This document shows, piece by piece, positions 4,303-31,402 of a stretch of 56,128 bases of DNA. The stretch's first letter is position 1. Every line of letters starts with the position of its first letter. Position numbers and translations under genes: made by a program. The notes beneath the pieces were generated by a model. It was not told the DNA's origin and made no database searches. It saw only the letters and a program-made list of their open reading frames with translations. The DNA is from Candidatus Sigynarchaeum calidifontis (GTDB lineage: Archaea > Asgardarchaeota > Lokiarchaeia > Sigyniarchaeales > Sigyniarchaeaceae). The DNA is taken from positions 1-56,128 of the forward strand of contig JAUQYZ020000262.1 of the NCBI GenBank assembly GCA_030587475.2, given 5' to 3'.

Positions 4303-4423
4303 AATTGTATCATTACAATTTATCGATCGTTTCAATGAGGGAGGGAATAATATCCTAATCAGCATAGAATATTTGCTTGTTTACTCTTCTTTAGGTGCTG
4401 GAGCATTATCATTTTGATGTCCA

Positions 4424-10112: not shown

Positions 10113-10593
10113 TTTTTACCGGTTCCTCCTTTTTTTCGATGAACAGCTTCAACGATTGCAATTGCATCGGGATCATGGCATACGGGAGGTTCACGTCCGT
10201 AATGGTTTTGATATCGAGGTAATAGATGTTGTCCACGTTCGCTTTCTCGATAGCGATCATGATGCCCGCCACGAGGGATTTCCGCCCCGGCGTGATATCG
10301 ATGTCGATATCATAACCAGCTTTTTTAAGTTGATTTATCAATTTGCTAATCTCTCGCCCCGCCACGGATGGATTGCCTTCTTCCACGATCATGTTCTCGA
10401 TTCTTGGTTTGAAACCGAATTCTTCAGTAAGGATTCGCACGCCTTCTTGCGTGAATTCAAGCTTGTCCTTGAACAGATCCTCGGTGACGATATAGATCAA
10501 CTCTGGCTTGATCGCCTTCTGCTGTAATACAGCATAGAGGGCGTTGATTAACCCCCAGATGCTTCTACCAAGTATGCTGACATATGCTCTCAA
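10105..10593 (-). CDS. Stand-alone CARF-domain protein
   Basis: N-terminal strand SILGRS, IYIVTE, CARF signature DIDITPGRK, IYYL; TTG start. Confidence 0.75.
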   Translation of the reverse strand: MRAYVSILGRSIWGLINALYAVLQQKAIKPELIYIVTEDLFKDKLEFTQEGVRILTEEFGFKPRIENMIVEEGNPSVAGREISKLINQLKKAGYDIDIDITPGRKSLVAGIMIAIEKANVDNIYYLDIKTITDVNLPYAMIPMQLQSLKLFIEKKEEPVKNA

Positions 10594-10656
10594 ATCGATA
10601 CACCAGGCTGCAATCTCGAATGGGTACCGAGGTTAAAAAGGCTTTAACGGGAAGAC

Positions 10657-13257
10657 GTGACTATTAGCATGGTGGCGCACGTGGCAAAAAAAAGTGGTCT
10701 TTATGACAGCGTCCTCGAGCGACTAGTCAAGTTTCGTGCTTTGATCGCTATGAAAATACCCGGTCCGCTGGATCAAGCAAGAAAAATGGAGCTAGCAGGT
10801 AATATCATCGATGATGTCGCCACATTGCTGTTTTTGATATCGGTTGGACATGCACGCGAGGATAAAACAAGAAATTCTATTACAGATTTCCTTTCCCGGA
10901 TTATTTCAGGTGAGACGTATCCCATCGTGGATGCATACCGCAGCTTTCATCCACGATTGTTTCACGGGCAGTTGTTTGAATCGCGAATGCTCGAAACGCT
11001 CAATTTAATGGATGAATGGCGAGATCTTCTCGAGTATTTTAAGGGTTTCCGTTGGATCTCCGATGAATTCGAGGATATATCCACCAGTGAATTGCCTTCA
11101 ATCACTCCGGCCATATTCAGCACGATTCACGAGCATAAAAAGGATCCAATAGCCGGAGAACACGAGAAAAAGCGCACGGGTGTCTACTACACTCCAGCGA
11201 CCATCTCCAACTACATCTGCGTTCGATGCATCGCCCAGTATCTTGCCTCGAAGACCGGGATCGAAGCCGATAACCTTGATGATTTTATAGATCGCCTGGA
11301 AAAGAGCAAGATTGAACAAGCCTTGATGTTACTAGACCGGGTGCGCGTGCTCGACCCTGCATGCGGTTCGGGCGAGTTTCTCGTGACCATGGCACATGTA
11401 CTTTTTTCGTTGAAGCAGAGGCTGACTAGCAAACATTCATCCAATAAAAAAGAACGTGCGCGAGATTTGAAAGTTAATATTTTATCCAACAACATATTTG
11501 GAGTGGATCATGCAGCCGATGCCACGAATGTTGCTAGAAAGCGGCTATGGTTATGGATGTTATCTGGTAGCGATGATGATACACCAGTAAAGCTTTCGTT
11601 TTCGAGATTGGAATGTAACATCCTCAATGGAAATGCACTTATCGGCTGGCTTGACGAAAACATCTATGATGAATCAAGTAGCATGCATTGTCATCTATCG
11701 ACCAACATCCCTTCTCCATCCGACATCACGGCCAGGCTTTCCCGCATGCTCGAATCCACGCTTAACGAGAATGAGAGAACAAAAGTCAACCTTGAGAAGT
11801 ATCAGCCGCTCCATTGGCGACTCGTTTTCAATGATCTTTTCAAGAATGATGGCAAGTTCAATATTATAGTTGGAAACCCGCCGTATGTATTCATACGTGG
11901 CCGAAATTTTGATGAAATCGAGATATCGTATTTTTATAAATGGTATTTTCAAGGTTATACGACAACCACCAAGGGAAAAGCGAGACAATCAGGGAAAATC
12001 AACGCGTTCAGCTTGTTCATAGCCCGGTCGATCAATTTGCTCGATGATGGAGGGATCCTCGGGTTCATCGTGCCGAACACGCTGTTGAGAACCACCACGA
12101 ATGATATCATTAGACAATTCATCATAAACACGTCATTCATTTATGAAATCGTGGATCTTCAAGATGGCGTGTTCGACGGGGTCGTTGCGTCCACGATCAT
12201 TTTAATTCTTGGAAAAAAAAACGCGGAGAAATGGCGGAAGGGAACTGTCGTGAAACACCTCGTGGAGGATCTATTATCCGGTAAATACCAATCACACGAG
12301 ATTGATCAAGAACGATTTCCCCTCAATCCTGCTTGCATCTTCGACATCCACGTGGATGACCGGTTTGCTACGATGTTTTCCGCCATGCAACGAGATACCT
12401 TTCCTTTGGAAGATGCTTGTAGCGAGATTATCGAAGGCTTGGTTACCCGGCGCGGCGATAATATGTTCACGACAGACCCGAACGCCCCGAACGCGAAAAA
12501 ATTGCTTCGAGGAAAGGACATTGATCGATACAAGATAGAATGGCACCCGGGCCAGTATATTATCTATGATCCGGCGAAGCTGCATCGCGCCCGGCCGGTC
12601 TTTGTCCACGAGGCACCCGTGAAATTGCTTGCCCAGCGCATTGGTGGCGGAACATATCCCCTCCGCGTGGCATACGATGATCGCCAGCATTATTTTTTCG
12701 CGTCCATCAATGCCATCATCTTGAAAAAGGAAATGAATGATGCAAATATCGAGCAAGAATACAAATATATCCTCGCGATCTTGAATTCTGCCTTGATGAA
12801 CGCTTATTACTTGCTCAGCTTCAGTAACAAATCCGCTTTGACCGTGAACGTGAGCAAGACCCTTCTCGGATCCTTGCCCATCAAGATCGCGACACCGGCA
12901 GTGCGACGCGGCATTGCAAAAATTGTCGATTACATGCTTTTTTTAAACGCGGGGGGAAGCAACGAGACCGAGTTGCGGGAATATATTGACAAGGAACTAT
13001 TGGACGTGATCCTCTACGATCTATACACGTGCCAGGAACAAGAAAACGATATGCTTGACACGATCCTTTCATTCTTCCACGAGATAGATCACAAGGATTC
13101 CGGCCGGAAAGGCACGATTGCTATCATAAAGGAATCGATAGCACGCATAAAGGCGGATGGTGATTGCATGTCATGGCTCTTGAACATCAAAAATAGCACT
13201 GGTTTTACAGCCATCAAGCATTTATTTGAAGAGCGCATCGACGGTGTTGTTGATTGA
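10657..13257 (+). CDS. Eco57I/TaqI-like gamma-class N6-adenine DNA methyltransferase with C-terminal TRD
   Basis: GVYYTP, LDPACGSGEFL, IVGNPPY, LLRGKDI.RY, ILAILNS. Confidence 0.88.
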   Translation: MTISMVAHVAKKSGLYDSVLERLVKFRALIAMKIPGPLDQARKMELAGNIIDDVATLLFLISVGHAREDKTRNSITDFLSRIISGETYPIVDAYRSFHPRLFHGQLFESRMLETLNLMDEWRDLLEYFKGFRWISDEFEDISTSELPSITPAIFSTIHEHKKDPIAGEHEKKRTGVYYTPATISNYICVRCIAQYLASKTGIEADNLDDFIDRLEKSKIEQALMLLDRVRVLDPACGSGEFLVTMAHVLFSLKQRLTSKHSSNKKERARDLKVNILSNNIFGVDHAADATNVARKRLWLWMLSGSDDDTPVKLSFSRLECNILNGNALIGWLDENIYDESSSMHCHLSTNIPSPSDITARLSRMLESTLNENERTKVNLEKYQPLHWRLVFNDLFKNDGKFNIIVGNPPYVFIRGRNFDEIEISYFYKWYFQGYTTTTKGKARQSGKINAFSLFIARSINLLDDGGILGFIVPNTLLRTTTNDIIRQFIINTSFIYEIVDLQDGVFDGVVASTIILILGKKNAEKWRKGTVVKHLVEDLLSGKYQSHEIDQERFPLNPACIFDIHVDDRFATMFSAMQRDTFPLEDACSEIIEGLVTRRGDNMFTTDPNAPNAKKLLRGKDIDRYKIEWHPGQYIIYDPAKLHRARPVFVHEAPVKLLAQRIGGGTYPLRVAYDDRQHYFFASINAIILKKEMNDANIEQEYKYILAILNSALMNAYYLLSFSNKSALTVNVSKTLLGSLPIKIATPAVRRGIAKIVDYMLFLNAGGSNETELREYIDKELLDVILYDLYTCQEQENDMLDTILSFFHEIDHKDSGRKGTIAIIKESIARIKADGDCMSWLLNIKNSTGFTAIKHLFEERIDGVVD

Positions 13258-15021
13258 AAGGATATCGCTCGCGTCAAGGTTGAATGCCTCGTACACGATT
13301 CGATCTATCTCCGCCATTAGAGCCTTTAACCCAGATGGATGACTATTATAGGTTCTCACCACCAGGCTCGTTCCAAATTGCTCCAATATTTCGTCGACGA
13401 GCTCGATTAGGTTTGCGCGGGCCGAGGGGGTAAAGGTAGGGACGGGTAGTTCGGCCAATCCTTTCACGCCGACGTGAGGCGTAGCCTTCTTTCCCTTCCT
13501 GAGGATCTCGCGCTCGATGGCATAGAAAGTGATCGCACGGGAATTGAGTAGCGCGCACGCGATCTTGAGATCGTCCTCGCCGTGCTTGGGCTTTCCGACT
13601 AAAATCCCGTATGCAGAGTATAACCGGGTATTGAGATACGCTGCCTGAATGCCCTTGCTGGCTTCCGGAATGAAAAGCCTTGGGCCCTCGTAGCGATCGG
13701 GATCTCCAAGAACAAGGGTCTTTCCTTCATTTCGTAGCCTGCGTTCTTTTTCCCGGTCGAACACGAAATAGCCTTGAGATTCGTCCCACCACGCATGATA
13801 ACGCCCGACATGCCTGGCGTCGAGGATGATCTTCTCGTACCTTTCGTCACGAGCTGTTTTTGATAGAAAATGCTCTCTGCAACCGCCGATATTAAGACCG
13901 CGGTTAATTTGCAAGATATCCCCGAGCTTGTGTTCCGCGCGCTCCATTTTTTCGAGAATGGCCCCGTGGAAGGAATAGGTGAACTCGAGCCCCTTGTGTC
14001 GCATGAAATGGTTGATAGAAATCTGTACTTGATGGCTTGCAATGCTGGAGGCCAGCGACTTGGAACTCGTGGGTATGCCTTTCAACGAGCACCAGCGCAG
14101 CATGTAGTCGGAAGGTGGCTTTGTTTTAGAGAGGCACAAGATGGCACAGTCGACGACCGCATCGAATGGATCGATGTCGATCACGAGCCGGTTGACAATG
14201 CATGTCGAGAGGATGTGCGCGCGTGTTTTCCGGTATGACGGGAGGACACATAGCGTCTTGTTCACGACGTAGGATAGAACGCCGTTTTCTTTCAGTATTT
14301 TTATACCAAGTTCTATAAAAAGGTTCATCGCATTGATCCGCTGATGGTCTTGATTAAAAAGTTCGAAGTTCCGAAGCACGGAATGCTTTTCAGCCGAAAT
14401 CATTCGTGCAGGAGCGCTGCCATAATAAGACAAGTATGGTGGATTCGATACGACGATGTCAAAAAGGCCGAATCGAGTTATCTTCCCCATCTCTATCAAT
14501 GCATTCCCGACCACGAGATGAGAAGCCATAGAATCTTTTACATCCTCATTTTCGACAACCCCGGTGATGCGATTTGAATCGAGGATGGCTTTCCTAGCGG
14601 ATTCGATTGCCTTGGCGTTGACATCAATGCCATATAATGAATGATTTATGGCTGCTCGGTAGAAATCAACCGGTGTTGTTTCCTTTCCCGCAAATTTGCA
14701 AATTTTCAATCGTGCTCTCACGAGCTCTTCCAGCATCATGACGAGCATCACCCCATTCCCGACGGCAGGATCGATGACCGTTATATCACGAAGCATTGCA
14801 TCGATAGCATCGAGCCGGGATCTGAACGATGCGGGGGCATCCAGATTGCCATCGCTTTCGAGAAATCTTTCGGCATCTTCGAATGGAAGGGCAAATCGCC
14901 GAGAGATTATTCTCGCAAGGCTATCACGACATAAAAAGCGGGCAAGATATGGTGGCGTGTAGTAAATTCCAGCGGATCGCCTATGGCCACGATCTCGAAT
15001 GTTTGAAGGCTTTTCGTCCAT
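13222..15021 (-). CDS. TaqI-like gamma-class N6-adenine DNA methyltransferase
   Basis: GIYYTP, IDPAVGNGVML, VVSNPPY, ACALLNS. Confidence 0.85.
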   Translation of the reverse strand: MDEKPSNIRDRGHRRSAGIYYTPPYLARFLCRDSLARIISRRFALPFEDAERFLESDGNLDAPASFRSRLDAIDAMLRDITVIDPAVGNGVMLVMMLEELVRARLKICKFAGKETTPVDFYRAAINHSLYGIDVNAKAIESARKAILDSNRITGVVENEDVKDSMASHLVVGNALIEMGKITRFGLFDIVVSNPPYLSYYGSAPARMISAEKHSVLRNFELFNQDHQRINAMNLFIELGIKILKENGVLSYVVNKTLCVLPSYRKTRAHILSTCIVNRLVIDIDPFDAVVDCAILCLSKTKPPSDYMLRWCSLKGIPTSSKSLASSIASHQVQISINHFMRHKGLEFTYSFHGAILEKMERAEHKLGDILQINRGLNIGGCREHFLSKTARDERYEKIILDARHVGRYHAWWDESQGYFVFDREKERRLRNEGKTLVLGDPDRYEGPRLFIPEASKGIQAAYLNTRLYSAYGILVGKPKHGEDDLKIACALLNSRAITFYAIEREILRKGKKATPHVGVKGLAELPVPTFTPSARANLIELVDEILEQFGTSLVVRTYNSHPSGLKALMAEIDRIVYEAFNLDASDILSINNTVDALFK

Positions 15022-15025
15022 CGGG

Positions 15026-17656
15026 TCACCGTAAACCTGATTCTGTTTCGATCCGGTCGATCCATGGATGTTTTCTCATTGCCCCGATGAGATCTTGTAC
15101 CGCATCATCCGCATCCAGTTCGGAAACGACGCGAGTTATCGTTTCCTTGATGCTCGCTTCCAGTTGGTCAAGCGAATTACGTTCATCATTGTCCAACCTT
15201 TCCCCTCGCATCAGCTTCCAATGCAACCGCGACCACGCGTCGTATTCCACGGGAACCAGGTGCGGACGGATTGCATCCAAGAGTGCGTACCTGGCCTCGG
15301 GATGTGCCTTATCAGAGACAAGCTTTTCGTAAAAAAATATTTCATAGACGATGAAATCAATGAGAAAATGTAGGAATTTGTGGTACTGCACGGTCAGGTA
15401 TTTGACGATCTGCCGAAACTCGTCCCTATCGGGAAGCAAGAGGGGATATCGATTCTCGATGTCGGCGATCGTGTTCAACCGGATTTCTTGAAAGTTGGAA
15501 AAGCATTTGTTATGGTACCAGTCGAATAATTTGCTATTCCACGTCCCCAGGACCTCGATCAGGGTATCAAGGGAGCCGTGGTAAATACAGATGATCGACT
15601 TGATGGTGTACACGTCACCCACGAATGAAGCCTTGATCCTGCCTCGAAACGCCAGATTAACCCCGATCTTGCTGTTCTTGTAGAAATTTTTCTTGATCGC
15701 TGCGGGATCGATGAAATATACCGGGGGAAGCAATTTGAATGGGATCATCTCGCTTGCGGTGAATATCGGGATCAGGCCCTCCAGCCTTTTCAAGGAAAGT
15801 GCTTTCTTCCCAAGTTCCTCGCCGCGGGTCACTTCTAGCCCATAGGTTGCATGCGATTTGGCAACCCGTTCGATGTGTAGAACAATCGGGTCATCCTTGA
15901 ATAAGTCAAACGACGACACGGTTATCGCAGGAACCCGCCCGAGAAGAGCGGCTTTGTTGGGGATGAAAGTATAATTCCTGAATTCGAAACCATTATGCGA
16001 TTCCTTGTCGAAAAACGCGATCGCCACGGCGATGCTCACCCCAACAAAAATGCCTTCACCAAGATTGTCATAGGCGAGCAAGTGTTTAGTCATACGAGCA
16101 CCTATTTGCCGGTAAAAGCTGTACGGGATGATCAAGCCGGCAAGACCTCGACATATCTTCATAGCGCGAATGATAAAGGCCTCGTAGATGTCATCAGTAT
16201 TTTCATAAACTTTTCGAATGATTTCTTTCCCGATGATTTCTTTTTTAGCTTTCGAGGAAGAAAAACTCAAGTAAGGGGGATTTCCGATGATTATATCGAA
16301 GCCACCCCGCTGGAATATATCCGAAAACTCGATACCCCAATGGAAGGGTTGCAGCCCAACGATCTTTTGGTTCTCGTGCAAGTTAGAAAGATACAATGCG
16401 TCGAGGTAAATCCGTGCTTTTTTTCTCTCTGAAGGCGATCCTCGGCTTCGAGCGAATGCTTCGTTCAGCCGCATCTCGTGTATGGCGAGCTTGTTGGTGG
16501 ATTCATTTGAAGGGGTGATGAAACCGAGCAAGCTGTTTCCATTCTTGAGGTTATCATCGAGCGAAGGGAGTGTATCCCCTCGATCTACATCCAGGGCAGA
16601 AATAAGGCTCAAGGATAGCCGGAGCTTCGCAACCTCGACAGATCCAGGTTGCACGTCAACACCGAAGATACTGGAAAGGATCACGTGTCGTTTTATGTCA
16701 TAGACGCTCGAGCTTAAACGTGGTAGATCTGGATACTGGCTAAAACGAACATCGCGCGGGTCGACGTGTTTGAGACAAGCATAATAGAGCTCAACAATGA
16801 CGCGCTCAGCTTCAACTAGAAATGCGCCGGAACCGCATGCAGGGTCACATATGGTAACACGAGTTAGAATGTTAAAATAAAACCACGCAATTTGTTCCAA
16901 TTCATCAGGGGTAATGTTCGTTTTGTACAGCACTTCGCCGATGAAATCCCCGAAAGCTGTGTGGAAATGGCTATTTATCGCCCGCGTTGCATAGATCGCA
17001 ACGGTTTTCCGTGTTATATAATCCGTGATAAAAGCAGGCGTGTAATAGGTTCCACTTTCTTTGCGATTGCAACTCATCTCGAAGATATAACCAAGGATCG
17101 CGGGATTGATGCACGTGTTAGATGGGTCTGGACTTGTTTCTACAAGTTGCCATTCGTGTTGGTCGATCATTTCCAATACGGAACTCAGGGCGGCATCATC
17201 GATCTCGATCGCATCGATGATATCACCATTTTTATCCGTCTCGATTCCCGGGATTGGTCGAAAGACGTTTCCTCCGAGAAATGGCACGACCTTGAAGATC
17301 CCATCCACATCGGTTCGAGGGTGATTGGAATTCAAATAGGAAAACCAAACCGTGCAAAGAACTTTATAGAATGATTGAAATGAAGGTAGTGCGCCGACGC
17401 GATATCGCGCAAACAGATCTTGCACGTAACGGACAGGCAACACGGGAGGCAAATTTCCACGAGGAACCTGCAAGAACGTTGTGAAAAAAATTCGATTCAA
17501 GATGATGTCCGCGTAAACATCCGGCCTAAGCTGGAAAAGTTCATGATCGCTTTTTTCCTTGAAATGAATTGCTTTAATGAGAAGATTCCTAATGTTTTCG
17601 TGTTTTAAATGAAATTTCTCCACGATCAGGCGATTATCATGCACGTAACTGTTCAT
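15026..17656 (-). CDS. Eco57I-like gamma-class N6-adenine DNA methyltransferase
   Basis: VPFLGGNVF, LGYIFE, GTYYTP, CDPACGSGAFL, FDIIIGNPPY. Confidence 0.88.
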   Translation of the reverse strand: MNSYVHDNRLIVEKFHLKHENIRNLLIKAIHFKEKSDHELFQLRPDVYADIILNRIFFTTFLQVPRGNLPPVLPVRYVQDLFARYRVGALPSFQSFYKVLCTVWFSYLNSNHPRTDVDGIFKVVPFLGGNVFRPIPGIETDKNGDIIDAIEIDDAALSSVLEMIDQHEWQLVETSPDPSNTCINPAILGYIFEMSCNRKESGTYYTPAFITDYITRKTVAIYATRAINSHFHTAFGDFIGEVLYKTNITPDELEQIAWFYFNILTRVTICDPACGSGAFLVEAERVIVELYYACLKHVDPRDVRFSQYPDLPRLSSSVYDIKRHVILSSIFGVDVQPGSVEVAKLRLSLSLISALDVDRGDTLPSLDDNLKNGNSLLGFITPSNESTNKLAIHEMRLNEAFARSRGSPSERKKARIYLDALYLSNLHENQKIVGLQPFHWGIEFSDIFQRGGFDIIIGNPPYLSFSSSKAKKEIIGKEIIRKVYENTDDIYEAFIIRAMKICRGLAGLIIPYSFYRQIGARMTKHLLAYDNLGEGIFVGVSIAVAIAFFDKESHNGFEFRNYTFIPNKAALLGRVPAITVSSFDLFKDDPIVLHIERVAKSHATYGLEVTRGEELGKKALSLKRLEGLIPIFTASEMIPFKLLPPVYFIDPAAIKKNFYKNSKIGVNLAFRGRIKASFVGDVYTIKSIICIYHGSLDTLIEVLGTWNSKLFDWYHNKCFSNFQEIRLNTIADIENRYPLLLPDRDEFRQIVKYLTVQYHKFLHFLIDFIVYEIFFYEKLVSDKAHPEARYALLDAIRPHLVPVEYDAWSRLHWKLMRGERLDNDERNSLDQLEASIKETITRVVSELDADDAVQDLIGAMRKHPWIDRIETESGLR

Positions 17657-17821
17657 GGAAATCGTCGCTTGCCGGTCATATCTATTCAGCGATGAACGGA
17701 ATGATCTTATTCGTGATTATTGAAAGACTTGCTTTCGCTCACATTTTAAGGCAGCAACAAGCGAAGCTTATTTACACAGAGGGATACGGATAGAAAAAGG
17801 TAATTACTATAATATGGCGCG

Positions 17822-18979
17822 TTGCGATCTGTATTGGACAAGATAACGGAGTCTAATGAAACAAGCGGCCTAGGAAGGAAGCAGGCCGCTTATCAAGCTT
17901 TAAAATCAGGGAACCTTGAGAAAGCCAAGGATCTCTTCGAAAAATTGAGCCAATCATATCCGTGGGTAGCTTCATTCAAGTTTAACCTTGCTTTAACATG
18001 TTTCAAGCTCGGGCAACTCGAAAAGGCCCTGGATAACGTGAACGCAGGGCTTACCATCGAGCCTAACGATGAAAAAGCTATAAAGATGAAGCAGACCATC
18101 GAATCTCGAATTAAAAAAACGAATCTAGAACTGAAGCCCCCAGAACACCAGAAAAAACCGGCAATTGCCTTCGTTCGTAATCGTGACGATAATGAAACAA
18201 TAAAATGCATCCTGGAAGGAAAATTTCCGCGGAATGATGATTTACAGTTAAATCTAGGGACGGCGGCCTATTCGTCCCACGTAAACCGGGGGGAATACAG
18301 CTCGTCTCGTTTGATGAATTTCATTATCTTCGAAAAACAGCGACGTAGGGCGGAACTCAGGTCGATGTATGATAACCACATCGATGACGAATTACATCAA
18401 AACCGCATCTCATGGTTTTTCTCCGACCCAGACATGAACGAAAAAAACGACGTTTTCCCCAATAAATGCTTGTTCCACGCCCCTCCCGAGATCACGGCGG
18501 AATTCGTGGATAACTTGATGACGCGGATAGATCTATTACCGAGAGCCGAGGACACCATTTTCATGGACACGATGAAATCGAGATATTCATATGATATACA
18601 TTATATCAAGGATGCCATCAACGAGCTGCGTAGGTCAAATCAATATCAACAAGCCATTCAGGCGTCCGAGAAATATTTGGAACACTTTCCTGATGACTTG
18701 GAGATTCTTTTCTCGCTCGGTAATATGCATTTAGAGCGGGGAAATATCGTCCAGAGTGAGAAGTCGTTTAAAAAAATCGTGGAATTGTATTATGAGAACG
18801 CGTATGCTTGGTATAACCTTGCCAAGATATATGAAATCCAGGGGCTGTGGCAGTTTGAGGCTTTTTGTTTGCAACAAGCGAAAAACTTCGGCTATCAGAT
18901 AGACGAAATCCGGCTTGCTAGGTTGCTGTTAAAGGGAGTACCCATCGATCCGTTCACGGATAACGTGCATTGGGAATGA
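17822..18979 (+). CDS. Tetratricopeptide repeat protein (N- and C-terminal TPR clusters)
   Basis: FNLALTCFKLGQLEKA...P, FSLGNMHLERG, AWYNLAKIYE; stop overlaps the next ATG (ATGA). Confidence 0.75.
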   Translation: MRSVLDKITESNETSGLGRKQAAYQALKSGNLEKAKDLFEKLSQSYPWVASFKFNLALTCFKLGQLEKALDNVNAGLTIEPNDEKAIKMKQTIESRIKKTNLELKPPEHQKKPAIAFVRNRDDNETIKCILEGKFPRNDDLQLNLGTAAYSSHVNRGEYSSSRLMNFIIFEKQRRRAELRSMYDNHIDDELHQNRISWFFSDPDMNEKNDVFPNKCLFHAPPEITAEFVDNLMTRIDLLPRAEDTIFMDTMKSRYSYDIHYIKDAINELRRSNQYQQAIQASEKYLEHFPDDLEILFSLGNMHLERGNIVQSEKSFKKIVELYYENAYAWYNLAKIYEIQGLWQFEAFCLQQAKNFGYQIDEIRLARLLLKGVPIDPFTDNVHWE

Positions 18980-21714
18980 ATGACTCGTCGGTGCTGGCTT
19001 TGGGCCAAAATCTGGTAAAACGGAGTAGTCTTGATATCATTGAACGGTTCCTTGCCACACGGGGTTGTCAAATAGATCCAAGACCTTATCTTGAAAGCAT
19101 TCCCGTTTTTTCCAGCGATTACGCCAGCCTTCCCGAGGATATTGTCGAAAAAATTATCCGTGATTCATATGAAGACGCGAACCCCATCGTAAAATTGATA
19201 GCGGGGATGTTCGCAACTGAATTCAAGATTCATATTGGACGTGTCCAAAAGAACCAGATCAAGAAGTATATCGACTATGAGCGTGAAGAAGACCTTCAGA
19301 TGTTTGTAAAACTGATTGGTGATTGTAACATTGACGCAGAAATTATTAAAAAAAGAATTAATGAAATAATTAGAGCAAGATCGTCGATACTCGAACGAAG
19401 TATTCCTGTTTTTTGGAAAAATCTCGAAGATGCAATTACAAATGAAAATTTCGACAGAGTCAAGGATTATCTTGTTTTTCTATATTCACGATTGCTGGCC
19501 TTGAATGAAAACCGTAATATTTCCTTGCGCTTCTTGTTTCAACAAGAAAGCGAGTTGATACGAAAAGAACTCGTTTCTGGAGATGGAAGCAAATCCCGCG
19601 AAGACGATTATCTTGAGCTCGAGAAATTTTGCGAAAATCCCATCGTTGAAGATTATGCATCTATCGTTACGAAGTTCAACAAGAAATATTTAGACATTTT
19701 AGAGAAAGGGGATGACATTCTGGGCAAGAAATCACTCATATATATGAATCTGAACCAAGCATTGTTCGATACAAAAGGAAATAAAAGTGATTTTTTTGGC
19801 TATTTGTTTCATTGCTTAAAAAAAGCTTTCGATCTGCTTCGCAACCATCGAGTTCTCGCTATAAAGGTCGAGAACATCATCCATGCAGGCTTGAATTTGA
19901 AATGGGACATTTATGCCCAAATAACTATTTTCGCGGAAAAATTATTCCCGACGGGATTTAATAGGACTTATTACCGCGCGGAGGAGATATGTGCCGATGT
20001 TATCGAACACAAGATAGGTGAAAGGCTTTCAGACGAAAATCGAGAGCGCCTCAAGCAATTTTATTCCGAAGACCTTCAAAATACCAAAAGTCTTGAAGGA
20101 ATCTTTGCCCGGCCAGAGATTAAAAATACTATCGAGTTTTTCAAGAAACCCCTTGCTGGTTTTTCTTTCGTCGATTGCTATATACTTCAGAACGAGAAAG
20201 TTTTTGAAAATTCGAAGGAAATCAATTTTATTGAAAATAAAAACGAATTGTTACTGGTTTTTTACAAAAATGTTGTCGATGAAAGGAAGATTCCATGCCC
20301 AGTTTGTGGATCCTTGAAGATTTCCGGAAATTCATACACGGAAATCGGTGAAAAGAGCTGGGAATGTAAAAATCCGCTATGCGCTGAAAGGAGCAAGACG
20401 AACAGGGGAAAACGTTATTCTATGCGCACGATCTTTATGCAAGATTCATTGTTCGATTTCAGACCAGAAAACGTGGTTCCGAAAAGCCTCATTAAGGTCT
20501 GGCGCAAGGATTTCGTCGAGCACTGGTCCAATAAGCAGCTTTATGCGATGATTACCAAGTATTACACGTATCCAGGTGAAACAATCCTTGCGATTAACGT
20601 GCAAGACAACGACGAGTTCCAATCTGTCGCATCGCAAGAAAAGCGCAAAGTTGAAACCGTTGCATTCTCAGAATTCGTTCCGGAAAATGACTATGGAAAT
20701 GGCGCATGGGAAGAATTTCTCAATGGGCCGCTCTTTGCACAATTTGTTTACGAAAATTCCAAATCAAGATGGGCTTCCAATGAAATACGCCCTTTTCCCT
20801 TGATGACTGTTAAAAAAAATTCGATATGCATTGTTCAAGACGATTGCATAAGCGTGATGAGACAGATCGAGAAAGATACGATTCAAATCATGATCACTTC
20901 GCCCCCATATTATAATGCCCGTGAATATAGCCAGTGGACTAATTTGTACAATTATTTGAATGACATGTATCGCATGATCGTTCGTGCCAGGGAAATTCTC
21001 GTGCCGGGTGGCGTATTTTTTTACAACATTGGGGATGTCTATGATAACGAAAGGACAATAGTCAAATCAACGATGGGCAACAAAAGGATCCCACTTGGCG
21101 CATATATAATATTGCTATTCCAGAAAGCAGGATTCATATTACTTGACAACGTCGCCTGGTACAAAGGCGAGCCACAAAGCAACAGGCAAAAGAACGACGG
21201 GAACTTCGTCCCGTTTTATCAACGACCAACGAATTGTTATGAGCATATGTTCATTTTCAAGAAGCCAGGGAGTCTAAAGCTCGCGAGGGACAGATCGGGG
21301 AACAAGCTACGTTCCAACGTTCAAAAATTCAGTCCTGTCATCAAGATCGGAAAAGGCGGAATAAACAAGTATGGGCACACAGCACCATTCCCGCCAGAAT
21401 TGCCCTTGCTCGCAATAAATTGCTTTACGAACCCAGGTGAAGTAGTATTCGACCCATATTCAGGTAGTGGCACGACAGCCATCGCTGCAGCTATTTGCGG
21501 CCGCGTTGGTATGGGCACAGAAATCAACCCGGAATATGCTCGCTTGTCTATAAAGATGGCCTGGGAAAAAGGCCTGAGAGCCATACTTTTGAAACGCTCT
21601 AGCAAAGGAGATTTCATCAAAGAAGGAAATTTCCTTCCGGATGCCGTGCATACTCAAAAACAAACAACATTGTACTCGTTTGGTGAAAAAACAGTGGAAA
21701 AGAGAAAGCTATAA
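18976..21714 (+). CDS. Large beta-class (N4C/N6A) DNA methyltransferase: degenerate MTase copy, Cys4 zinc finger and intact MTase
   Basis: C-terminal ITSPPY ... HTAPFP ... FDPYSGSGTT; CPVC...CKNPLC; internal duplication. Confidence 0.85.
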   Translation: MNDSSVLALGQNLVKRSSLDIIERFLATRGCQIDPRPYLESIPVFSSDYASLPEDIVEKIIRDSYEDANPIVKLIAGMFATEFKIHIGRVQKNQIKKYIDYEREEDLQMFVKLIGDCNIDAEIIKKRINEIIRARSSILERSIPVFWKNLEDAITNENFDRVKDYLVFLYSRLLALNENRNISLRFLFQQESELIRKELVSGDGSKSREDDYLELEKFCENPIVEDYASIVTKFNKKYLDILEKGDDILGKKSLIYMNLNQALFDTKGNKSDFFGYLFHCLKKAFDLLRNHRVLAIKVENIIHAGLNLKWDIYAQITIFAEKLFPTGFNRTYYRAEEICADVIEHKIGERLSDENRERLKQFYSEDLQNTKSLEGIFARPEIKNTIEFFKKPLAGFSFVDCYILQNEKVFENSKEINFIENKNELLLVFYKNVVDERKIPCPVCGSLKISGNSYTEIGEKSWECKNPLCAERSKTNRGKRYSMRTIFMQDSLFDFRPENVVPKSLIKVWRKDFVEHWSNKQLYAMITKYYTYPGETILAINVQDNDEFQSVASQEKRKVETVAFSEFVPENDYGNGAWEEFLNGPLFAQFVYENSKSRWASNEIRPFPLMTVKKNSICIVQDDCISVMRQIEKDTIQIMITSPPYYNAREYSQWTNLYNYLNDMYRMIVRAREILVPGGVFFYNIGDVYDNERTIVKSTMGNKRIPLGAYIILLFQKAGFILLDNVAWYKGEPQSNRQKNDGNFVPFYQRPTNCYEHMFIFKKPGSLKLARDRSGNKLRSNVQKFSPVIKIGKGGINKYGHTAPFPPELPLLAINCFTNPGEVVFDPYSGSGTTAIAAAICGRVGMGTEINPEYARLSIKMAWEKGLRAILLKRSSKGDFIKEGNFLPDAVHTQKQTTLYSFGEKTVEKRKL

Positions 21715-21769
21715 CTTGTCGAAAAATGGTTCTCTGATAGGTTTTTATAGGTCAATGGAATTTTGAGGC

Positions 21770-23284
21770 ATGCCGATTAAAATCCTTTTTATAGAGCCAT
21801 CGTTACCTTATGATAATCCGGTTTTCGAGCACGAGATCCCTATTCATGTGGTTCATCTTGCAAATTTTTTGATGGAAAAAATATATCCTAAGCCAAATAT
21901 CGAATTTTTAGATCTCGAATGGGAACGAAAAATCGACATTTCTTTCGATCCATTCAACGTCGTGCAAATTGAAAAGCTTATCATGAGGACAATCGACCAT
22001 TCGTTCAATTTCACGCGTGATGATCGCTTTTTCGTGCTAATATCTTGTTTTTTCACGTATCAATATCTTTCATCCAAAGCCGTACTCGAAGCTATCCAGA
22101 ATTTGCGTAAAGATCATTCTATTGATGTTTGTAAGGTCATTATCGGGGGTTATCATCCCACCATTCTCCCAGACGATTTTCACAATCTAGGCGCGGATTG
22201 CGTGATCCGTGGGGAAGGAGAACTCGCTTTGCTGGAAGTTTTATCACGGAATGGAAATCAATCACCCTATACTGAGATCATCGAAGGAAATATCGTCCGG
22301 GATCTCGATTTGCTTCCCCCTATTGATTTTTCGGTCTATGATAAATATATACCATATTACAAGCATCTTTCTATCACCCTCTCCCGAGGGTGCCCATTCA
22401 ACTGCAATTTCTGCATCGAGAAGAAGTACAAGGCATTCAAGTGCGAAAAAGCTGCCTGGAGGGCCTATTCACCGAGTAGGGCGATTGTGGAGATAAAAAA
22501 TGTCATAAAGTCTTCTGAAAGCATGTTAAAAGAAGGAGATAAACAAATTGGTTTTTACGATCCAATCTTTGGATTTAACGAGCTTTGGTTAGGAAAAGTG
22601 TTGGATTTCCTCCGTGATGGGAATTGCGGCTACCATTTTTGGGCAGAAACGCGCATCGACTCGTTCAAGGTAGAAAGTATACCCGCCATGAAAGCTGCAA
22701 ACGTTTCGTTGATGCTCGGCTTGGAGTCGGGATCACCGAAAATGTTACAGCTCATGAACAAAACAAATGATCCAAAGGGTTTTCTCAACAAACTGGAATG
22801 CATTTTAAATCGAGGTAAAGAAATGAATTACGGGCCGTTTGTTTTGAACTTGATGTTCAATTTTCCCGGAGAAACACCTAATTCCCTCCGGGAGACATTC
22901 GCGTATCTCGACCGGCTCGTCGACACGTGTGGAAACTTCACGGCGGGATCAAATTTCTACAACTTCTTTCCCGGGGACGCAATATTCGCCAACATTGGGA
23001 CGTGGGAAAAGGAACACGGAACGAAGATTCATTTCAAGGAATGGTGGAAATCTCAAGAAACGGCCACCGCGGGCCACGTTCTTGATGCAAGTCGCGATCT
23101 GACGATCCGAGATTCCATCATTCTCGTTCACGAAGGTATGAAGGCTTTTTTCGAGCACGTGATGATGAACGAGGCAAACATTGCCAAGAAGTTTTTTATT
23201 GCTAATAAAATGGCTTTTGAGGTCAAGGTCTTCAAGAAATGGCTTCTCACGATCGACAATCTCTTGCATTGTTATGCCCGTTGA
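21770..23284 (+). CDS. Cobalamin-binding radical SAM protein (class B methylase-like)
   Basis: IIGGYHPT, VIRGEGE, SRGCPFNCNFC, GLESGS, FPGET. Confidence 0.88.
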   Translation: MPIKILFIEPSLPYDNPVFEHEIPIHVVHLANFLMEKIYPKPNIEFLDLEWERKIDISFDPFNVVQIEKLIMRTIDHSFNFTRDDRFFVLISCFFTYQYLSSKAVLEAIQNLRKDHSIDVCKVIIGGYHPTILPDDFHNLGADCVIRGEGELALLEVLSRNGNQSPYTEIIEGNIVRDLDLLPPIDFSVYDKYIPYYKHLSITLSRGCPFNCNFCIEKKYKAFKCEKAAWRAYSPSRAIVEIKNVIKSSESMLKEGDKQIGFYDPIFGFNELWLGKVLDFLRDGNCGYHFWAETRIDSFKVESIPAMKAANVSLMLGLESGSPKMLQLMNKTNDPKGFLNKLECILNRGKEMNYGPFVLNLMFNFPGETPNSLRETFAYLDRLVDTCGNFTAGSNFYNFFPGDAIFANIGTWEKEHGTKIHFKEWWKSQETATAGHVLDASRDLTIRDSIILVHEGMKAFFEHVMMNEANIAKKFFIANKMAFEVKVFKKWLLTIDNLLHCYAR

Positions 23285-23347
23285 ACTTCCGTGCAAGATG
23301 GGAACTATCGAATATCCAAGTGATTGATCGTTCTATTAATAAGATAG

Positions 23348-25048
23348 TTGAAAACCCATCCTGCCAACCATCATTCTATACCTATGCCCACTAGTAATAA
23401 GACACTAGACGCGTTCCTTGGCATAACGAGCAAGACGCGGGAGAGCGAGAAGATCGATATAAAGCGGACGCTCGACCTAGAGGGATTTCCAGATAATGAA
23501 TGGACCTTCAAGGTCGCTAACACGAACGAGTTCACCCATCTCATTTTCCACGAGTACCCAGCACGCATGATACCGCAAGTTGCCCGCAAACTCATCAAGC
23601 TGTACTACCCTCACTATGAAAATAAAGACCACAAGAAGCCGATGTTGGATCCCTTCGGTGGATCAGGTACGAGTTGTGTCGAGGCGATGTTGCGGAACAT
23701 TGATTCCATCGCGTTCGATCTCAACCCGCTGGCTAACATAATACAGAAAGTGAAGACAACACCCATCGATCCGGTTATCCTGAATCACCACCTGGCGTTG
23801 ATCATGCACATCGTGGCCGAAGAGCGAGGGAAAACGTTTCCCGAGATCGTTCCAGCCGTGCCCCAAATCCGGTTTTGGTTCAGTGATCGAGTAATCTCCG
23901 AGCTTTCCGCCATCAAGCATGCCATTTCCACGTCCTTTCCTGAACAAACTGGTGAACGGGAAATTACGACGCAATTGAGAAATTTTTTCCTTGTTTGTCT
24001 TGGAAAAACTGCCCGGGATTGTTCATACCAGCGCAAGGGTGAAAACAAGACATATCGCATTCAAAGGGAAAAGATCGCGGATTTTAACACCAAGGTAAAT
24101 GCAATCTCGCGATTCAAGCAAGTTGCTCAAGAATACATAACAGCTATGGATTCTTATTATTCGTATATCAAGCAAAACAAGTTCACGGCAAGTTGCAAGC
24201 CTGTATTAGGCAATTCCATATTTTTAGAAGGAATAGCAGATAATTCCATAGACCTCGTCGTCACGAGCCCGCCCTATGGGGACAGCCACACGACCGTAGC
24301 GTATGGGCAGTTTTCGAGGTTCCCGCTTGAGTGGATCCTACCGGATACGACGCGGGTGAAGGATATCGACTCGCAGCTCCTCGGAGGCATTGAAAACGAT
24401 GCGGAATTCCCTGAATCCCGATTATTGCTTGAAACTTGCAAGAGTATCATGATCGCGCAGGCACGACAGCAAAAAACCTTGATACTAGCACATTTAAATG
24501 CAATTGAACCTAGCGACCTCGCGGATGTAAAGTTGGAAATGAAAGAACTCGATAATTTTATCAGCGGCGTGGAATCCGCCATCTCTCATGCAGTCGATTT
24601 CCAGGAATTTGCACGTATAAAGAAAGATTACTTTTCACGGCTCGCGAGCGCGCGCTCGGCTGGAACCAAGGGGAACAAGTGGCTTGATGGCCAGGCCCTC
24701 GGGAAGACCGGGCATTTTAAGATATACAGCGACCGCATAGGCTTCGTGCTTTCGTTCTTTGCCGATTTTTCAAAGGTGCTAGCACGCCTCTTCCAAGTAC
24801 TCGATGGCAATCGAAAATGCTGCATCGTCATTGGCAACCGGACGGTTAAAAACGTTAAAATTCCTACAGATCGCATCATAATCGAGCTTGCAAATAATCT
24901 TGGATTTGAACACGTGGATTCATTTCACCGCGACATCCCGAACAAGCGCATGCCATTAAGCAATTCACCATCCAACGTGCCTGGCGAGTTGTCACCCACG
25001 ATGGACAAAGAGATCATCGTTGTACTCAACAAACCTTTTTCTAAATGA
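23348..25048 (+). CDS. Alpha-class DNA methyltransferase, probably N4-cytosine
   Basis: HEYPARMIPQ, LDPFGGSGTS precedes VVTSPPYGDS, IVIGNRTV; true start may be ATG 23384. Confidence 0.85.
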   Translation: MKTHPANHHSIPMPTSNKTLDAFLGITSKTRESEKIDIKRTLDLEGFPDNEWTFKVANTNEFTHLIFHEYPARMIPQVARKLIKLYYPHYENKDHKKPMLDPFGGSGTSCVEAMLRNIDSIAFDLNPLANIIQKVKTTPIDPVILNHHLALIMHIVAEERGKTFPEIVPAVPQIRFWFSDRVISELSAIKHAISTSFPEQTGEREITTQLRNFFLVCLGKTARDCSYQRKGENKTYRIQREKIADFNTKVNAISRFKQVAQEYITAMDSYYSYIKQNKFTASCKPVLGNSIFLEGIADNSIDLVVTSPPYGDSHTTVAYGQFSRFPLEWILPDTTRVKDIDSQLLGGIENDAEFPESRLLLETCKSIMIAQARQQKTLILAHLNAIEPSDLADVKLEMKELDNFISGVESAISHAVDFQEFARIKKDYFSRLASARSAGTKGNKWLDGQALGKTGHFKIYSDRIGFVLSFFADFSKVLARLFQVLDGNRKCCIVIGNRTVKNVKIPTDRIIIELANNLGFEHVDSFHRDIPNKRMPLSNSPSNVPGELSPTMDKEIIVVLNKPFSK

Positions 25049-25054
25049 ACGTCG

Positions 25055-27484
25055 TTAGGAACCGATGTTCAAACGCGCAGCCACGATCTTGTCTATTTTG
25101 GCAATGATGTCGTTTGAAAGGTCGATGGCTCGTACCATGGCTTGAAAATGACGAATGTCGCTGGCTTCCAAGGTTTTACCAATCCTATCATCAAGCCACT
25201 TGCGCAAAACTGCGTATTTCCCGACGTGAAAATCATAGACATCTTCATGAATTGGAAAGAAATATCGTCGCGTGTTGATGTGCAATCGTTCATCGTGAAA
25301 ACGGCTTCCGTGCATTTTTTCAACCGTGTTCGATCCCGTACCTTCGATGCCGCAAGCTGAATTGAAACTGTCCTTTTCCAGCTCTAACAAGTGCAGCAAG
25401 ATCAGCGCCCTTCCAAGCGCACGTAGCTCGCCAAAAAACACCTTGTCTTCCACGAGAGGGACACGTGGTGTCCCTCCTTTCAAGCACGCATTAAATTTTC
25501 GCTTGAACGAGGGGGACCAGAGAATGGCATAGATATAGCCTATCGTTCCTGGAAGATCGTTCTCATCTAACGGGGCTCCCATCCGAGAAGAATAATCCTG
25601 GTAAAGTCTCGATAGGTTCCACGATGTCGTGCCATCGGATGCAATAACGCGAACCGGAAACAAGTAACAATTTGTAGAACTGGTATTCGACAAGAAAATG
25701 ACATCCGTGAAAGCATTAGCGACGAACACGTGGTGAAAATCTCGATCCTTGACGAGCTTGGTAGTCAGCAGTATTAAATTGCCTTCATAACATTGCTGCT
25801 TGGCTTTAATAACCGGACGTGTCCACGCGCGCCGGTCGAAGTAGACGAATCTCACGTCGAATGGCCGGTAGTTGTAACGGATGACCTGGCGCGCATCAAC
25901 CCATAGCGAGGGCGCGTTGCGCAATATTTTTCGCTTGGCTTCTGTCAGACGATGCATTTCTGTATCTTTCGAGGCTTGTAAGAAAAATGCTTTGATCTTG
26001 CGCATCGAGCTATCCCGATCAAAGGAAACAAGCAATTCATCATCGCCCGGCTTTCCCCCAACGCTGTGAAATTTCAATATGTCTTCGATGGACGTGAAAG
26101 AACAATATTCATCTAATACTGTATCATCCGCTTTTTCAGGGGAAAAAGCGAGCAACGGCTCACGAGGATGCTCTATCAAGTGCCACGGGATGCTATGCAA
26201 GTCGTTCGCATCGAGCCAGGCGAGTTTTTCCCCCTTGGTGCCAAAAATCTCGTGATGGTATATTACATGCCGACGTGTAGTCCCATTTCTCGCTTTCAAA
26301 GCGATGAAAATACAAGTACCTTGCTGGATCGGGAAAATATTTTGGTTGACGATGCCAGATGGAACATCTTCTTGGATTTTTGCATTTCCGTGAAGGTCGA
26401 GAATGTATAATTCATCGAAAGAAGCCAGCAAGGAACGCCTCATCCCGCGAAAGATGGGACCCTTAAGAAACGTGTGGTTTACGACGAATCCAAGGATGCC
26501 GAACCCGTTCCGGTCGATTATATCTTGTCCGAATCTGATGAACTTGATATAGTCATCGGACAGCGCTTGAATGTTTTTATCCCCCCTCACGCCCTCCTTG
26601 TACGCGCCCAGTAACGTGTCGATGCGCGTTATCTTGTTCTGGGACGCACGGGAATAGGGCGGGTTACCAATGATTATGGAGAAACCATCAAGAAATGCGG
26701 GATCTTGCTCGAAGGCATTTCCCTCGATGAAAGCAGGGCAGATTTGCTTTGTCTTGAATTTCCGAGAATCCATGATCCGCAACGCGCATCGCATCTGGGC
26801 CAAAGCAAGGGGAACGGGCATTAAATCGATCCCCACGACACGGGGAATGCGCTGGCACGCGTGTTTTTCCAAATGATCAAGCACGTGTAAGAGAAATGTT
26901 CCCGTACCAGTTGCGGGATCAAGTACCTGGATGCCCGCACGTCCATCGACGATGGATCCGTCGGCCAATCCGTCCACGAATCCGAGTTTCTCCTTGAGCA
27001 AGGCATCGACCATGCGCACGATGAACCGAGCGACTGGGTTCGGCGTGTAAAAAACCCCACGTTTGCTTTTCTCGCGAGGTGCATACATTCGCAGGAATCG
27101 CTCGTGGATGTTCGAGATAGCATCATCAAGGCTGCCTGAAAGCTCATTTTTTTTGAGATCGCGTTCTAGGTCGACGTATTTCATAAACTCGGCCAAGGCA
27201 GATGTAGCCCGGGAAATTTCCGCGTTAATGTGCAAAAAATCCCCGCTCGAAAATATTCGTGCACGTCGCAATCGATCGAGAAAGTTTCCATCGCCAAGGA
27301 AACCATCCAGTAGTTCAACCACGTCTTGCTTCACCACGCCGGTGATTTTTGCATTCAGCAGCCCATACACGATACCTTGCGCCGCCAGGTCACTAATGTC
27401 TTCGCCAGCGCCATGAGAATCGATTATACTCTTGATTAACAGCGCGCATTCGGCCATTCGATTAGCAATATTTTCCAGGCTCAC
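25055..27484 (-). CDS. Type ISP-like N6-adenine methyltransferase plus specificity domain (no helicase or nuclease visible)
   Basis: RGVFYTP, LDPATGTGTFL, IIGNPPY, DDYIKFIR, LDLHG, YRPFD, YIYAIL, VLRKWLDDR. Confidence 0.85.
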   Translation of the reverse strand: MSLENIANRMAECALLIKSIIDSHGAGEDISDLAAQGIVYGLLNAKITGVVKQDVVELLDGFLGDGNFLDRLRRARIFSSGDFLHINAEISRATSALAEFMKYVDLERDLKKNELSGSLDDAISNIHERFLRMYAPREKSKRGVFYTPNPVARFIVRMVDALLKEKLGFVDGLADGSIVDGRAGIQVLDPATGTGTFLLHVLDHLEKHACQRIPRVVGIDLMPVPLALAQMRCALRIMDSRKFKTKQICPAFIEGNAFEQDPAFLDGFSIIIGNPPYSRASQNKITRIDTLLGAYKEGVRGDKNIQALSDDYIKFIRFGQDIIDRNGFGILGFVVNHTFLKGPIFRGMRRSLLASFDELYILDLHGNAKIQEDVPSGIVNQNIFPIQQGTCIFIALKARNGTTRRHVIYHHEIFGTKGEKLAWLDANDLHSIPWHLIEHPREPLLAFSPEKADDTVLDEYCSFTSIEDILKFHSVGGKPGDDELLVSFDRDSSMRKIKAFFLQASKDTEMHRLTEAKRKILRNAPSLWVDARQVIRYNYRPFDVRFVYFDRRAWTRPVIKAKQQCYEGNLILLTTKLVKDRDFHHVFVANAFTDVIFLSNTSSTNCYLFPVRVIASDGTTSWNLSRLYQDYSSRMGAPLDENDLPGTIGYIYAILWSPSFKRKFNACLKGGTPRVPLVEDKVFFGELRALGRALILLHLLELEKDSFNSACGIEGTGSNTVEKMHGSRFHDERLHINTRRYFFPIHEDVYDFHVGKYAVLRKWLDDRIGKTLEASDIRHFQAMVRAIDLSNDIIAKIDKIVAARLNIGS

Positions 27485-27886: not shown

Positions 27887-28141
27887 ATGCTATGGCTGGA
27901 AAACTTGCTCGACGTTGAAAAAATAATCAACTTGATGGAATCATGCGATAAGGAATGCAGCAAATGCACAAAAGAGCAGAAAAACGATTGTTTGCTCGAA
28001 ATGCGCGAGTCTATCCATAGTCTCGCGATCCATTTCAAGAATTCGATATACTCGTTCGTGGAATTCCTTAGCGCGGGGGAACAGCAATCCTCCGAATCTC
28101 AAAAGCAAGACCAGCAAGAAAGACCACATATCTATACTTGA
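27887..28141 (+). CDS. Small Cys-motif protein with C-terminal IYT (HbYX-like) tail
   Basis: CDKECSKC-x7-C, amphipathic helix, Q/S-rich tail; upstream GAGGTGA. Confidence 0.6.
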   Translation: MLWLENLLDVEKIINLMESCDKECSKCTKEQKNDCLLEMRESIHSLAIHFKNSIYSFVEFLSAGEQQSSESQKQDQQERPHIYT

Positions 28142-31307: not shown

Positions 31308-31402
31308 TGCGCCTGCCGGGATTCGAACCCGGGTCGCTGGCTCGATCCGTTGGTTCTTGCCAACTTGGGAAGCCAACATTCTAACCGCTAAACAACAGGC
31401 GC
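31308..31402 (-). tRNA. tRNA-Gly(CCC) with a 23-nt intron at position 37/38 (intron 31343-31365)
   Basis: Acceptor GCGCCTG/CAGGCGC+A, T-arm CCGGG-TTCGAAT-CCCGG, anticodon stem TTGGC/GCCAG, intron forms a BHB-like motif; CCA not encoded. Confidence 0.92.

Follow-up and report, generated by a model that had tools for sequence, protein, structure and literature searches.

Persistent solitary DNA methyltransferases (MTases) such as Dam, CcrM and CamA of Clostridioides difficile have no cognate nuclease, are inherited with the host lineage, are under purifying selection and keep their specificity domains conserved. Nuclease-less DNA MTases are usually considered singly, and MTases of the restriction-modification (RM) type usually turn over fast. 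Conserved orphan MTases are also described for Halobacteria (PMC6471742). Here we have analysed a cluster of eight genes, six of them encoding MTases, found at positions 10657-27484 of a contig from Candidatus Sigynarchaeum calidifontis. The contig (C213; 56,128 nucleotides), called the window below, was used at its full length and belongs to a metagenome-assembled genome (G000) of 5.0 Mb which is 89% complete. Named homologs point to the Asgard archaea (Promethearchaeota/Lokiarchaeia), in the vicinity of Candidatus Sigynarchaeum.

We think it reasonably probable that the cluster is an array of solitary ('persistent orphan') DNA MTases which has been passed on vertically and maintained by selection. 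The idea of persistent orphan MTases is known; new here are the conserved multi-enzyme block, the TPR partner gene and a predicted pseudo-dimeric MTase. An earlier, sequence-only reading of the window had proposed an undescribed system, which is too strong, as the data fit that known idea, with the MTases forming a block. The literature was searched and no description of this cluster was found.

Pfam was scanned with the eight cluster genes, their neighbours and ten larger open reading frames (ORFs) farther along the contig, and PADLOC with the eight cluster genes and five neighbours. For comparison, DNA was read from G001, a congeneric genome of a different species, and from three sets of metagenomic contigs, L021, L120/L122 and L019/L020/L123. 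A Sigynarchaeota contig, whose DNA was not readable, was used as a gene table only.

Conservation of the methyltransferase block

Eight ORFs fill the interval at the coordinates given in the sequence-only reading (Table 1). That reading had counted six MTases with intact motifs in the eight consecutive genes, on which ORFs, Pfam and motif positions agree, and its class assignments (four gamma-class NPPY enzymes, one beta-class SPPY enzyme and one alpha-class SPPY enzyme) are correct by motif order. Pfam also agrees on the other two genes, one for a TPR protein and the other for a B12 radical SAM enzyme (rSAM). The S-adenosylmethionine (SAM) loop and the catalytic motif are intact in all six MTases of the window. 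Upstream of NPPY, each of the gamma enzymes M1, M2, M3 and M8 carries G-x-[YF]YTP and a DPAxGxG loop. The Pfam families matched are Eco57I, N6_Mtase and MmeI_Mtase for M1, M2 and M3, with TaqI_C additionally in M1 and M2, N6_Mtase and Type_ISP_C (PF18135, E 4e-42, residues 468-782) for M8, and N6_N4_Mtase for M5 and M7. The other genes scanned on the contig have metabolic or housekeeping functions. Taking approximately 30 MTases and an assumed number of about 4500 genes, the probability of at least six MTases in eight consecutive genes by chance is about 3e-12.

The whole block from the PIN-like gene next to the cluster to the dCD gene beyond it is present in G001 at 70-73% nucleotide identity, with all orthologs intact. 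The ratio of non-synonymous to synonymous substitution rates (dN/dS) of the cluster genes is 0.10-0.23 where dS can be estimated, dS being at or near saturation (1.2-2.2) and saturated for M5 and rSAM. This is within the range of the flanking genes, 0.06 to 0.24, the upper value being that of RsmB; the CARF and PIN-like genes have 0.07-0.09. Amino acid (aa) identity to the window is 65-76% in L021, 49-68% in L120/L122 and 37-60% in L019/L020/L123. The order M1(+) M2(-) M3(-) TPR(+) M5(+) M7(+) is constant in the four further lineages read as DNA, and the gene table of the Sigynarchaeota contig shows the same gene order.

The position of the block is conserved as well. The flank in L122 is identical to that of the window (POR-RsmB-epimerase-RACo-PIN-CARF-M1), and in L123, the most distant lineage, the block again lies between RACo/epimerase and RsmB/POR. 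Ranking by identity gives L021 > G001 > L122 > L123 for the cluster and for the flanking genes, with two near-ties in POR genes. Identity is 56-60% for M5 and M7 versus 40% for the neighbouring RsmB, and 46-66% for the orthologs of M1. In M1, M2 and M3 the specificity domain is conserved equally to the catalytic domain or more highly (79 versus 69% in M1, 51 versus 40% in M2), and in M8 and M7 slightly less. Fast-switching RM enzymes usually show the opposite of conserved specificity domains.

A non-functional pile-up of decaying RM remnants would be in keeping with the look of the four gamma enzymes, which resemble Type IIG/IIL enzymes after nuclease loss. Yet the genes are intact in every lineage read, with motifs kept in the window, gene order fixed and dN/dS as given above, so that synteny and purifying selection contradict a non-conserved pile-up, and we regard this explanation as very improbable. 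As the block is syntenic, intact, under selection and co-diverging with its flanking genes, it is neither a pile-up of remnants nor a mobile island.

The conserved core is five MTases and the TPR gene, not eight genes. The rSAM gene is found only in the clade of the window (nine orthologs, 63-82% identity), inserted between M5 and M7; its slot holds a PCMT-like class I MTase in the Sigynarchaeota contig and is empty in L123. M8 is present in G000, G001 and L021 and missing from L123, while the DNA of L120/L122 ends before the M8 position. L123 carries an extra, second alpha-type N6_N4 enzyme. Thus, the dedicated DNA-modification locus of the sequence-only reading holds in that it is MTase-only, under selection and not RM debris (synteny, intact genes, dN/dS), and fails as an eight-gene unit, since rSAM and M8 are clade-specific. 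The CARF and PIN-like genes adjoin the cluster in four lineages, and an MBL-fold gene stands in their place in L123. The pairing with CARF-PIN suggested earlier is therefore not a property of the cluster, adjacency being limited to the clade of the window.

Distant homologs of rSAM are often fused to PCMT or cyclophilin domains, which suggests a protein rather than DNA as its substrate. A link of rSAM with MTases elsewhere was rejected: the Asgard paralogs (40-42% identity) are in unrelated contexts, away from MTases.

Single lineages have further genes within the block. In L123, an IS605 OrfB/TnpB gene (4143-5351) lies between the extra N6_N4 MTase and TPR, and a 300-aa ORF with weak zinc-finger matches (12014-12916) between M1 and M2. 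In the Sigynarchaeota contig, M2 and M3 are separated by an RNase_H_2 (PF13482) gene.

Nuclease search, genome context and alternatives

Among the genes scanned by Pfam and PADLOC, no restriction endonuclease (REase), HsdR/S, Res, PglZ, BrxC, helicase or integrase family was found, as the sequence-only reading had stated, and a hidden nuclease was found neither by these scans nor by tblastn, alignments or the M5 fold. Matches of the gamma enzymes to the PADLOC Type IIG models begin no earlier than about position 190-540 of the model, and those of M1 at about position 330-390. In an alignment with full-length Type IIG relatives (977-1155 aa), M3 and nine orthologs start 123-204 residues into the relatives, and these extra residues have the size of the N-terminal nuclease domain of the latter; residues 1-200 of M3 have motifs in common with the region preceding the MTase in the IIG relatives. 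Residues 269-699 of M8 align with 443-897 of the Type IIL enzyme 7lo5, M8 having about 170 residues fewer, and residue 269 aligns to position 1013 of LlaBIII and 849 of LlaGI, with only about 120 residues before the MTase in M8. It follows from these offsets that M8 is without the nuclease of 7lo5, LlaBIII and LlaGI and without the helicase of the latter two.

A set of 17 IIG N-terminal nuclease domains gave no match at E<=0.01 by tblastn against the whole G000 genome. Eight unassigned segments of the cluster proteins matched no nuclease family at E<=1 in Pfam, a kind of search that a novel nuclease fold could escape. The nuclease-less state of the gamma enzymes is common to their orthologs. 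Judged by sequence, the gamma enzymes would methylate but be unable to cut, and neither the cognate endonuclease gene nor the fused nuclease domain of classical Type II/IIG RM was found at the locus.

The described systems that mark self by methylation were also searched for. The NCBIfam BREX MTaseX models score 33-54 bits (cut-offs 400-900) and the MAD2 equivalog NF047738 scores 23-57 bits (cut-off 720). PglZ (PF08665) has no match in the window or in G000, at the completeness given above; BrxC and BrxL were not searched genome-wide. From DISARM, the DrmA/DrmB helicase-DUF1998 pair and DrmC were not found in the window, and one MZB (PF09369) ORF is located on contig C230.

These scores bear on the alternative that a defence system uses the cluster as its methylation arm and has an effector which is unrecognised or encoded elsewhere, unmarked incoming DNA being attacked as in BREX, DISARM and MADS. 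A nuclease acting in trans could be this effector, as could the TPR protein, rSAM or the products of the adjoining CARF and PIN-like genes. The resemblance of the gamma enzymes to PglX, DrmMI and mad2 in PADLOC and NCBIfam would fit such an arm, as would the CARF and PIN-like genes beside the cluster in four lineages, the match of rSAM to a PADLOC model and the invariable coupling of the TPR gene to M5. However, the NCBIfam scores (33-57 bits overall) are far under the cut-offs for PglX and MAD2, PglZ was not found in the genome, and the block has no helicase, ATPase or nuclease in any lineage. Moreover, CARF-PIN, rSAM and M8 are missing from L123, hence none of them is a core partner, and conserved specificity domains are unusual for defence MTases. 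We therefore consider a defence arm unlikely.

The GC content was compared across relatives together with synteny, and the syntenic block deviates in GC in G000 only. The low-GC region of the window (9000-31100; GC 0.46-0.48) takes in the dCD-U1-U2 genes, of which dCD is housekeeping. In G001, L021 and L020 the GC content of the cluster equals that of the flanks or is just below it. The low value in G000 could, for instance, stem from homologous replacement by DNA of a relative with lower GC. No integrase or recombinase was found among the genes scanned, and no direct repeat pairing with tRNA-Gly (att site) in the window.

Low GC in G000 would also fit the cluster being cargo of a mobile element integrated long ago or of a defence-island hotspot, with anti-restriction or hitch-hiking MTases whose conservation would come from recent spread. 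A tRNA-Gly gene 4 kb away, the location of the non-Asgard M5 family on conjugative or integrative elements (as in Aciduliprofundum), the IS605 OrfB gene inside the L123 cluster, the patchy distribution across the phylum and a second MTase-only run on contig C102 point in the same direction. Against this, neither integrase, att repeat nor conjugation gene was found, the chromosomal neighbours are the same in lineages as distant as 40% RsmB identity, co-divergence with the flanking genes and dS of 1.2-2.2 speak against recent spread, and GC fits the host genome in three other lineages. Mobile cargo is thus quite improbable in our judgement, and 'island' in the mobile sense, as the sequence-only reading had it, does not apply: there is no integrase or att repeat, the site is the same in distant lineages and GC is low in G000 only.

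G000 is rich in MTases, with 15 Eco57I-type and up to about 16 N6_N4-type matches. The second MTase-only run (contig C102, also L121; 3379-8683) comprises four consecutive genes, N6_N4 MTases of 270, 373 and 546 aa and a gamma-class Eco57I/TaqI_C enzyme of 592 aa, and no nuclease gene was found among the ORFs scanned around it. Another Eco57I-type ORF (at least 940 aa) follows 6 kb beyond this run. On contig C163, at about 10363-13978, a ResIII-family ORF (800 aa) and an N6_N4 MTase (473 aa) are about 3 kb apart and may make up a Type III-like system away from the cluster.

Several points count against an array of persistent orphan MTases. An ortholog of M5 (E<=1e-100) is found in only 2 out of 400 sampled species genomes of the phylum, and close orthologs of M3 or M5 are absent from two genomes of the same family (63% and 78% complete) and from three complete genomes of the order. 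The cluster has a GC content of 0.456 in G000 versus 0.542 for the genome, within the lowest 0.6% of 16.8-kb windows, which hints at recombinational replacement or foreign origin. The genome is incomplete and may encode a nuclease acting in trans; a ResIII-family ORF does lie near an MTase on C163. The adjoining CARF and PIN-like genes are of defence type, and rSAM matches the PADLOC defence-candidate model PDC-M51A (E 2.5e-12). Finally, it is from motifs and selection that we infer the six enzymes to be active on DNA.

M5 architecture and other features of the locus

In M5, Pfam places N6_N4_Mtase at residues 638-861, and SPPY (644) precedes the SAM loop (829), which is the beta order. Since searches with the whole model were swamped by the C-terminal domain, the N-terminal part was folded alone, with 50 homologs. 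Residues 1-600 are predicted (pLDDT 85-86) to consist of a helical domain followed by another MTase fold of the beta class. The latter, residues 248-568, matches TTHA0409 (2zie) with VIA Z 16.1 and rmsd 3.3 over 183 residues; the top 19 structural rows are all MTases, and Foldseek is concordant. This domain has no [SDN]PP[YFWH] catalytic motif and contains an invariant Cys4 zinc ribbon (C443, C446, C466, C471). According to the model, M5 is a fused pair of one dead and one live MTase (pseudo-dimer) and not an RM fusion. An internal duplication was not significant by sequence (hhalign of 245-600 against 605-890: probability 1.2%, E 0.044, 37 columns), and the second MTase domain is therefore seen by fold comparison alone.

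The TPR gene is located directly 5' of M5 in every lineage seen, and its end overlaps the M5 start by 10 nt. The TPR protein may be a partner or scaffold of M5. Co-folding of TPR with residues 1-610 of M5 gave a score of 0.01 against a mark of 0.32, which speaks neither for nor against binding. Outside Asgards the M5 family is widespread, often solitary and on mobile elements; the Aciduliprofundum locus has integrase, TraG and T4SS pilin. No second gene of the cluster was present at any of the other M5-family loci fetched from genome contigs, and the association is therefore specific to this Asgard clade.

A bolder interpretation takes the operon TPR-M5-(rSAM or PCMT-like MTase)-M7 and the three gamma enzymes as one co-regulated epigenetic machine of Asgard archaea, including scaffolded assembly and a combinatorial methyl code with readers elsewhere, such as proteins of chromatin or defence. 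The task of the B12 radical SAM enzyme would then be to make or extend a non-canonical modification of DNA or of a cluster enzyme, and the dead-plus-live pair of M5 would be a prokaryotic counterpart of the logic of METTL3/14 and MTA1/9. We give this interpretation little credence.

The features of the locus are collected in Table 1. The 3' ends of M1 and M2 are convergent with a 36-nt overlap (13222-13257), and the same 36 nt are found in L021, L120 and the Sigynarchaeota contig. The conserved intergenic block upstream of TPR, taken from a four-lineage alignment, probably provides the operon TPR-M5-rSAM-M7 with its promoter and 5' leader; the block's invariant 14-mer occurs once in the window. 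The C-terminal domain of M7 is common to other Type II MTase models, and M7 matches PADLOC PDLC03322 (E 5e-108).

The CARF gene and the 347-aa ORF jointly match the single-chain 465-aa CARF_PIN model of PADLOC, and the split form is kept in four lineages. The 347-aa ORF was assigned as PIN-like by this model alone (E 8e-12), Pfam giving no match. Neither a CRISPR nor a cyclase turned up in the genes scanned. The 84-aa ORF between M8 and dCD is 83-86% identical in G001 and L021; a same-family genome without the cluster has it at 91% over 57 residues. The two adjoining ORFs of 378 and 385 aa are kept (63-73%) beside dCD in G001 and L021. Rfam detected the tRNA alone, which may contain an intron.

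Table 1. Features of the cluster and its surroundings in the window (positions of motifs and domains are residues)
Feature	Position	Strand	Length	Description
PIN-like ORF	9069-10112	-	347 aa	8-nt overlap with CARF gene; matches only the PIN-bearing part of the CARF_PIN model
CARF gene	10105-10593	-	162 aa	adjacent separable module; divergent from M1 across 63 bp
M1	10657..13257	+	866 aa	helical N-domain, gamma-class N6-adenine MTase, TaqI_C specificity domain 615-742, no nuclease domain; GVYYTP 175, DPACGSG about 241, NPPY 407
M2	13222..15021	-	599 aa	minimal gamma-class MTase and TaqI_C domain; GIYYTP 18, DPAVGNG, NPPY 193
M3	15026..17656	-	876 aa	helical N-domain, gamma-class MTase, 313-aa C-terminal domain (probably the specificity domain); GTYYTP 202, DPACGSG about 279, NPPY 459
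Conserved intergenic block	17750..17803	+	54 bp	TATA-like TTATTTAC and invariant ACGGATAGAAAAAG
TPR protein	17822..18979	+	385 aa	Pfam TPR
M5	18970..21714	+	914 aa	helical domain 1-247, predicted dead beta-MTase-fold domain 248-568, active-type beta-class SPPY MTase about 605-880
B12-binding radical SAM enzyme	21770..23284	+	504 aa	Pfam B12-binding and Radical_SAM; CPFNCNFC (CxxxCxxC) at 208
M7	23348..25048	+	566 aa	alpha-order N6_N4-type MTase; SAM loop DPFGGSG about 102-109, SPPY 307
M8	25055..27484	-	809 aa	gamma-class MTase and Type ISP/DrdV-like C-terminal specificity domain; GVFYTP 143, DPATGTG, NPPY 274
Cys-containing ORF	27887-28141	+	84 aa	no family match
Two adjoining ORFs	28793-31071	-	378 and 385 aa	no Pfam or PADLOC match
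tRNA-Gly(CCC)	31308-31402	-	95 nt	exceeds standard tRNA length

Proposed function and comparison with described systems

As solitary MTases, M1, M2, M3 and M8 would derive from the Type IIG/IIL/ISP lineage with the nuclease module lost, and each would put N6-methyladenine at its own motif by means of its own specificity domain. The catalytic motif SPPY is more typical of N4-cytosine enzymes, and M5 and M7 would, by the usual link between motif and base, probably give N4-methylcytosine (m4C). Between them, the six enzymes would keep some six chromosomal motifs constitutively methylated, and cleavage would not be linked to this marking. The benefit may be self-marking or pre-emptive protection from restriction enzymes of viruses and mobile elements, epigenetic control, or both; if self-marking, the mark would be read by an unlinked reader.

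Five to six unrelated MTases have been held as one block over a divergence that takes the rRNA methylase gene RsmB to 40% identity, and the IIG-type members would have lost their nucleases before that divergence. Asgard archaea are the closest archaeal relatives of eukaryotes, and some of them may, as a host trait, methylate their DNA heavily and stably at multiple motifs. Such an MTase-rich host trait fits the REBASE survey of one complete Lokiarchaeota genome, with 11 Type II MTases, 4 IIG and 0 Type II or III nucleases (PMC10609329). The locus offers a defined gene set to match with long-read methylomes and a test case for the purpose of orphan methylation.

Compared with the persistent solitary MTases introduced above, M3 has CamA (7lni/8cxz) as its best PDB sequence match, and for M1 CamA ties just behind M.BseCI (7qw5). 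Unlike these enzymes, which stand singly, the locus brings five to six unrelated MTases of three permutation classes into one syntenic block with a TPR gene. It is confined to one Lokiarchaeial clade and is known here from its genes.

The Type IIG/IIL enzymes (MmeI, Eco57I, DrdV 7lo5) and the Type ISP enzymes (LlaGI, LlaBIII) have the same chain of helical N-domain, gamma MTase and C-terminal specificity domain (TaqI_C or Type_ISP_C), whereas their N-terminal nuclease, together with the helicase in ISP, is missing in all four gamma enzymes and their orthologs. In M8, specifically, Type_ISP_C is present and the Mrr-like nuclease and SF2 helicase of LlaGI/LlaBIII are missing. PglX of BREX and DrmMI of DISARM are also nuclease-less, IIG-like adenine MTases marking self, and the gamma enzymes match them partially in PADLOC and NCBIfam. 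The differences are scores below the family cut-offs and a block without PglZ, BrxC, BrxL and DrmABC.

The pairing of a dead and a live MTase, or of two MTases in a dimer, as in METTL3-METTL14, ciliate MTA1-MTA9, the dimeric beta-class CcrM and M.MboIIA, resembles the predicted architecture of M5, and MT-A70 complexes are among the structural matches of both of its MTase domains. In M5 the pair forms a single chain that also has a zinc ribbon and a helical N-domain. The likeness is one of logic only.

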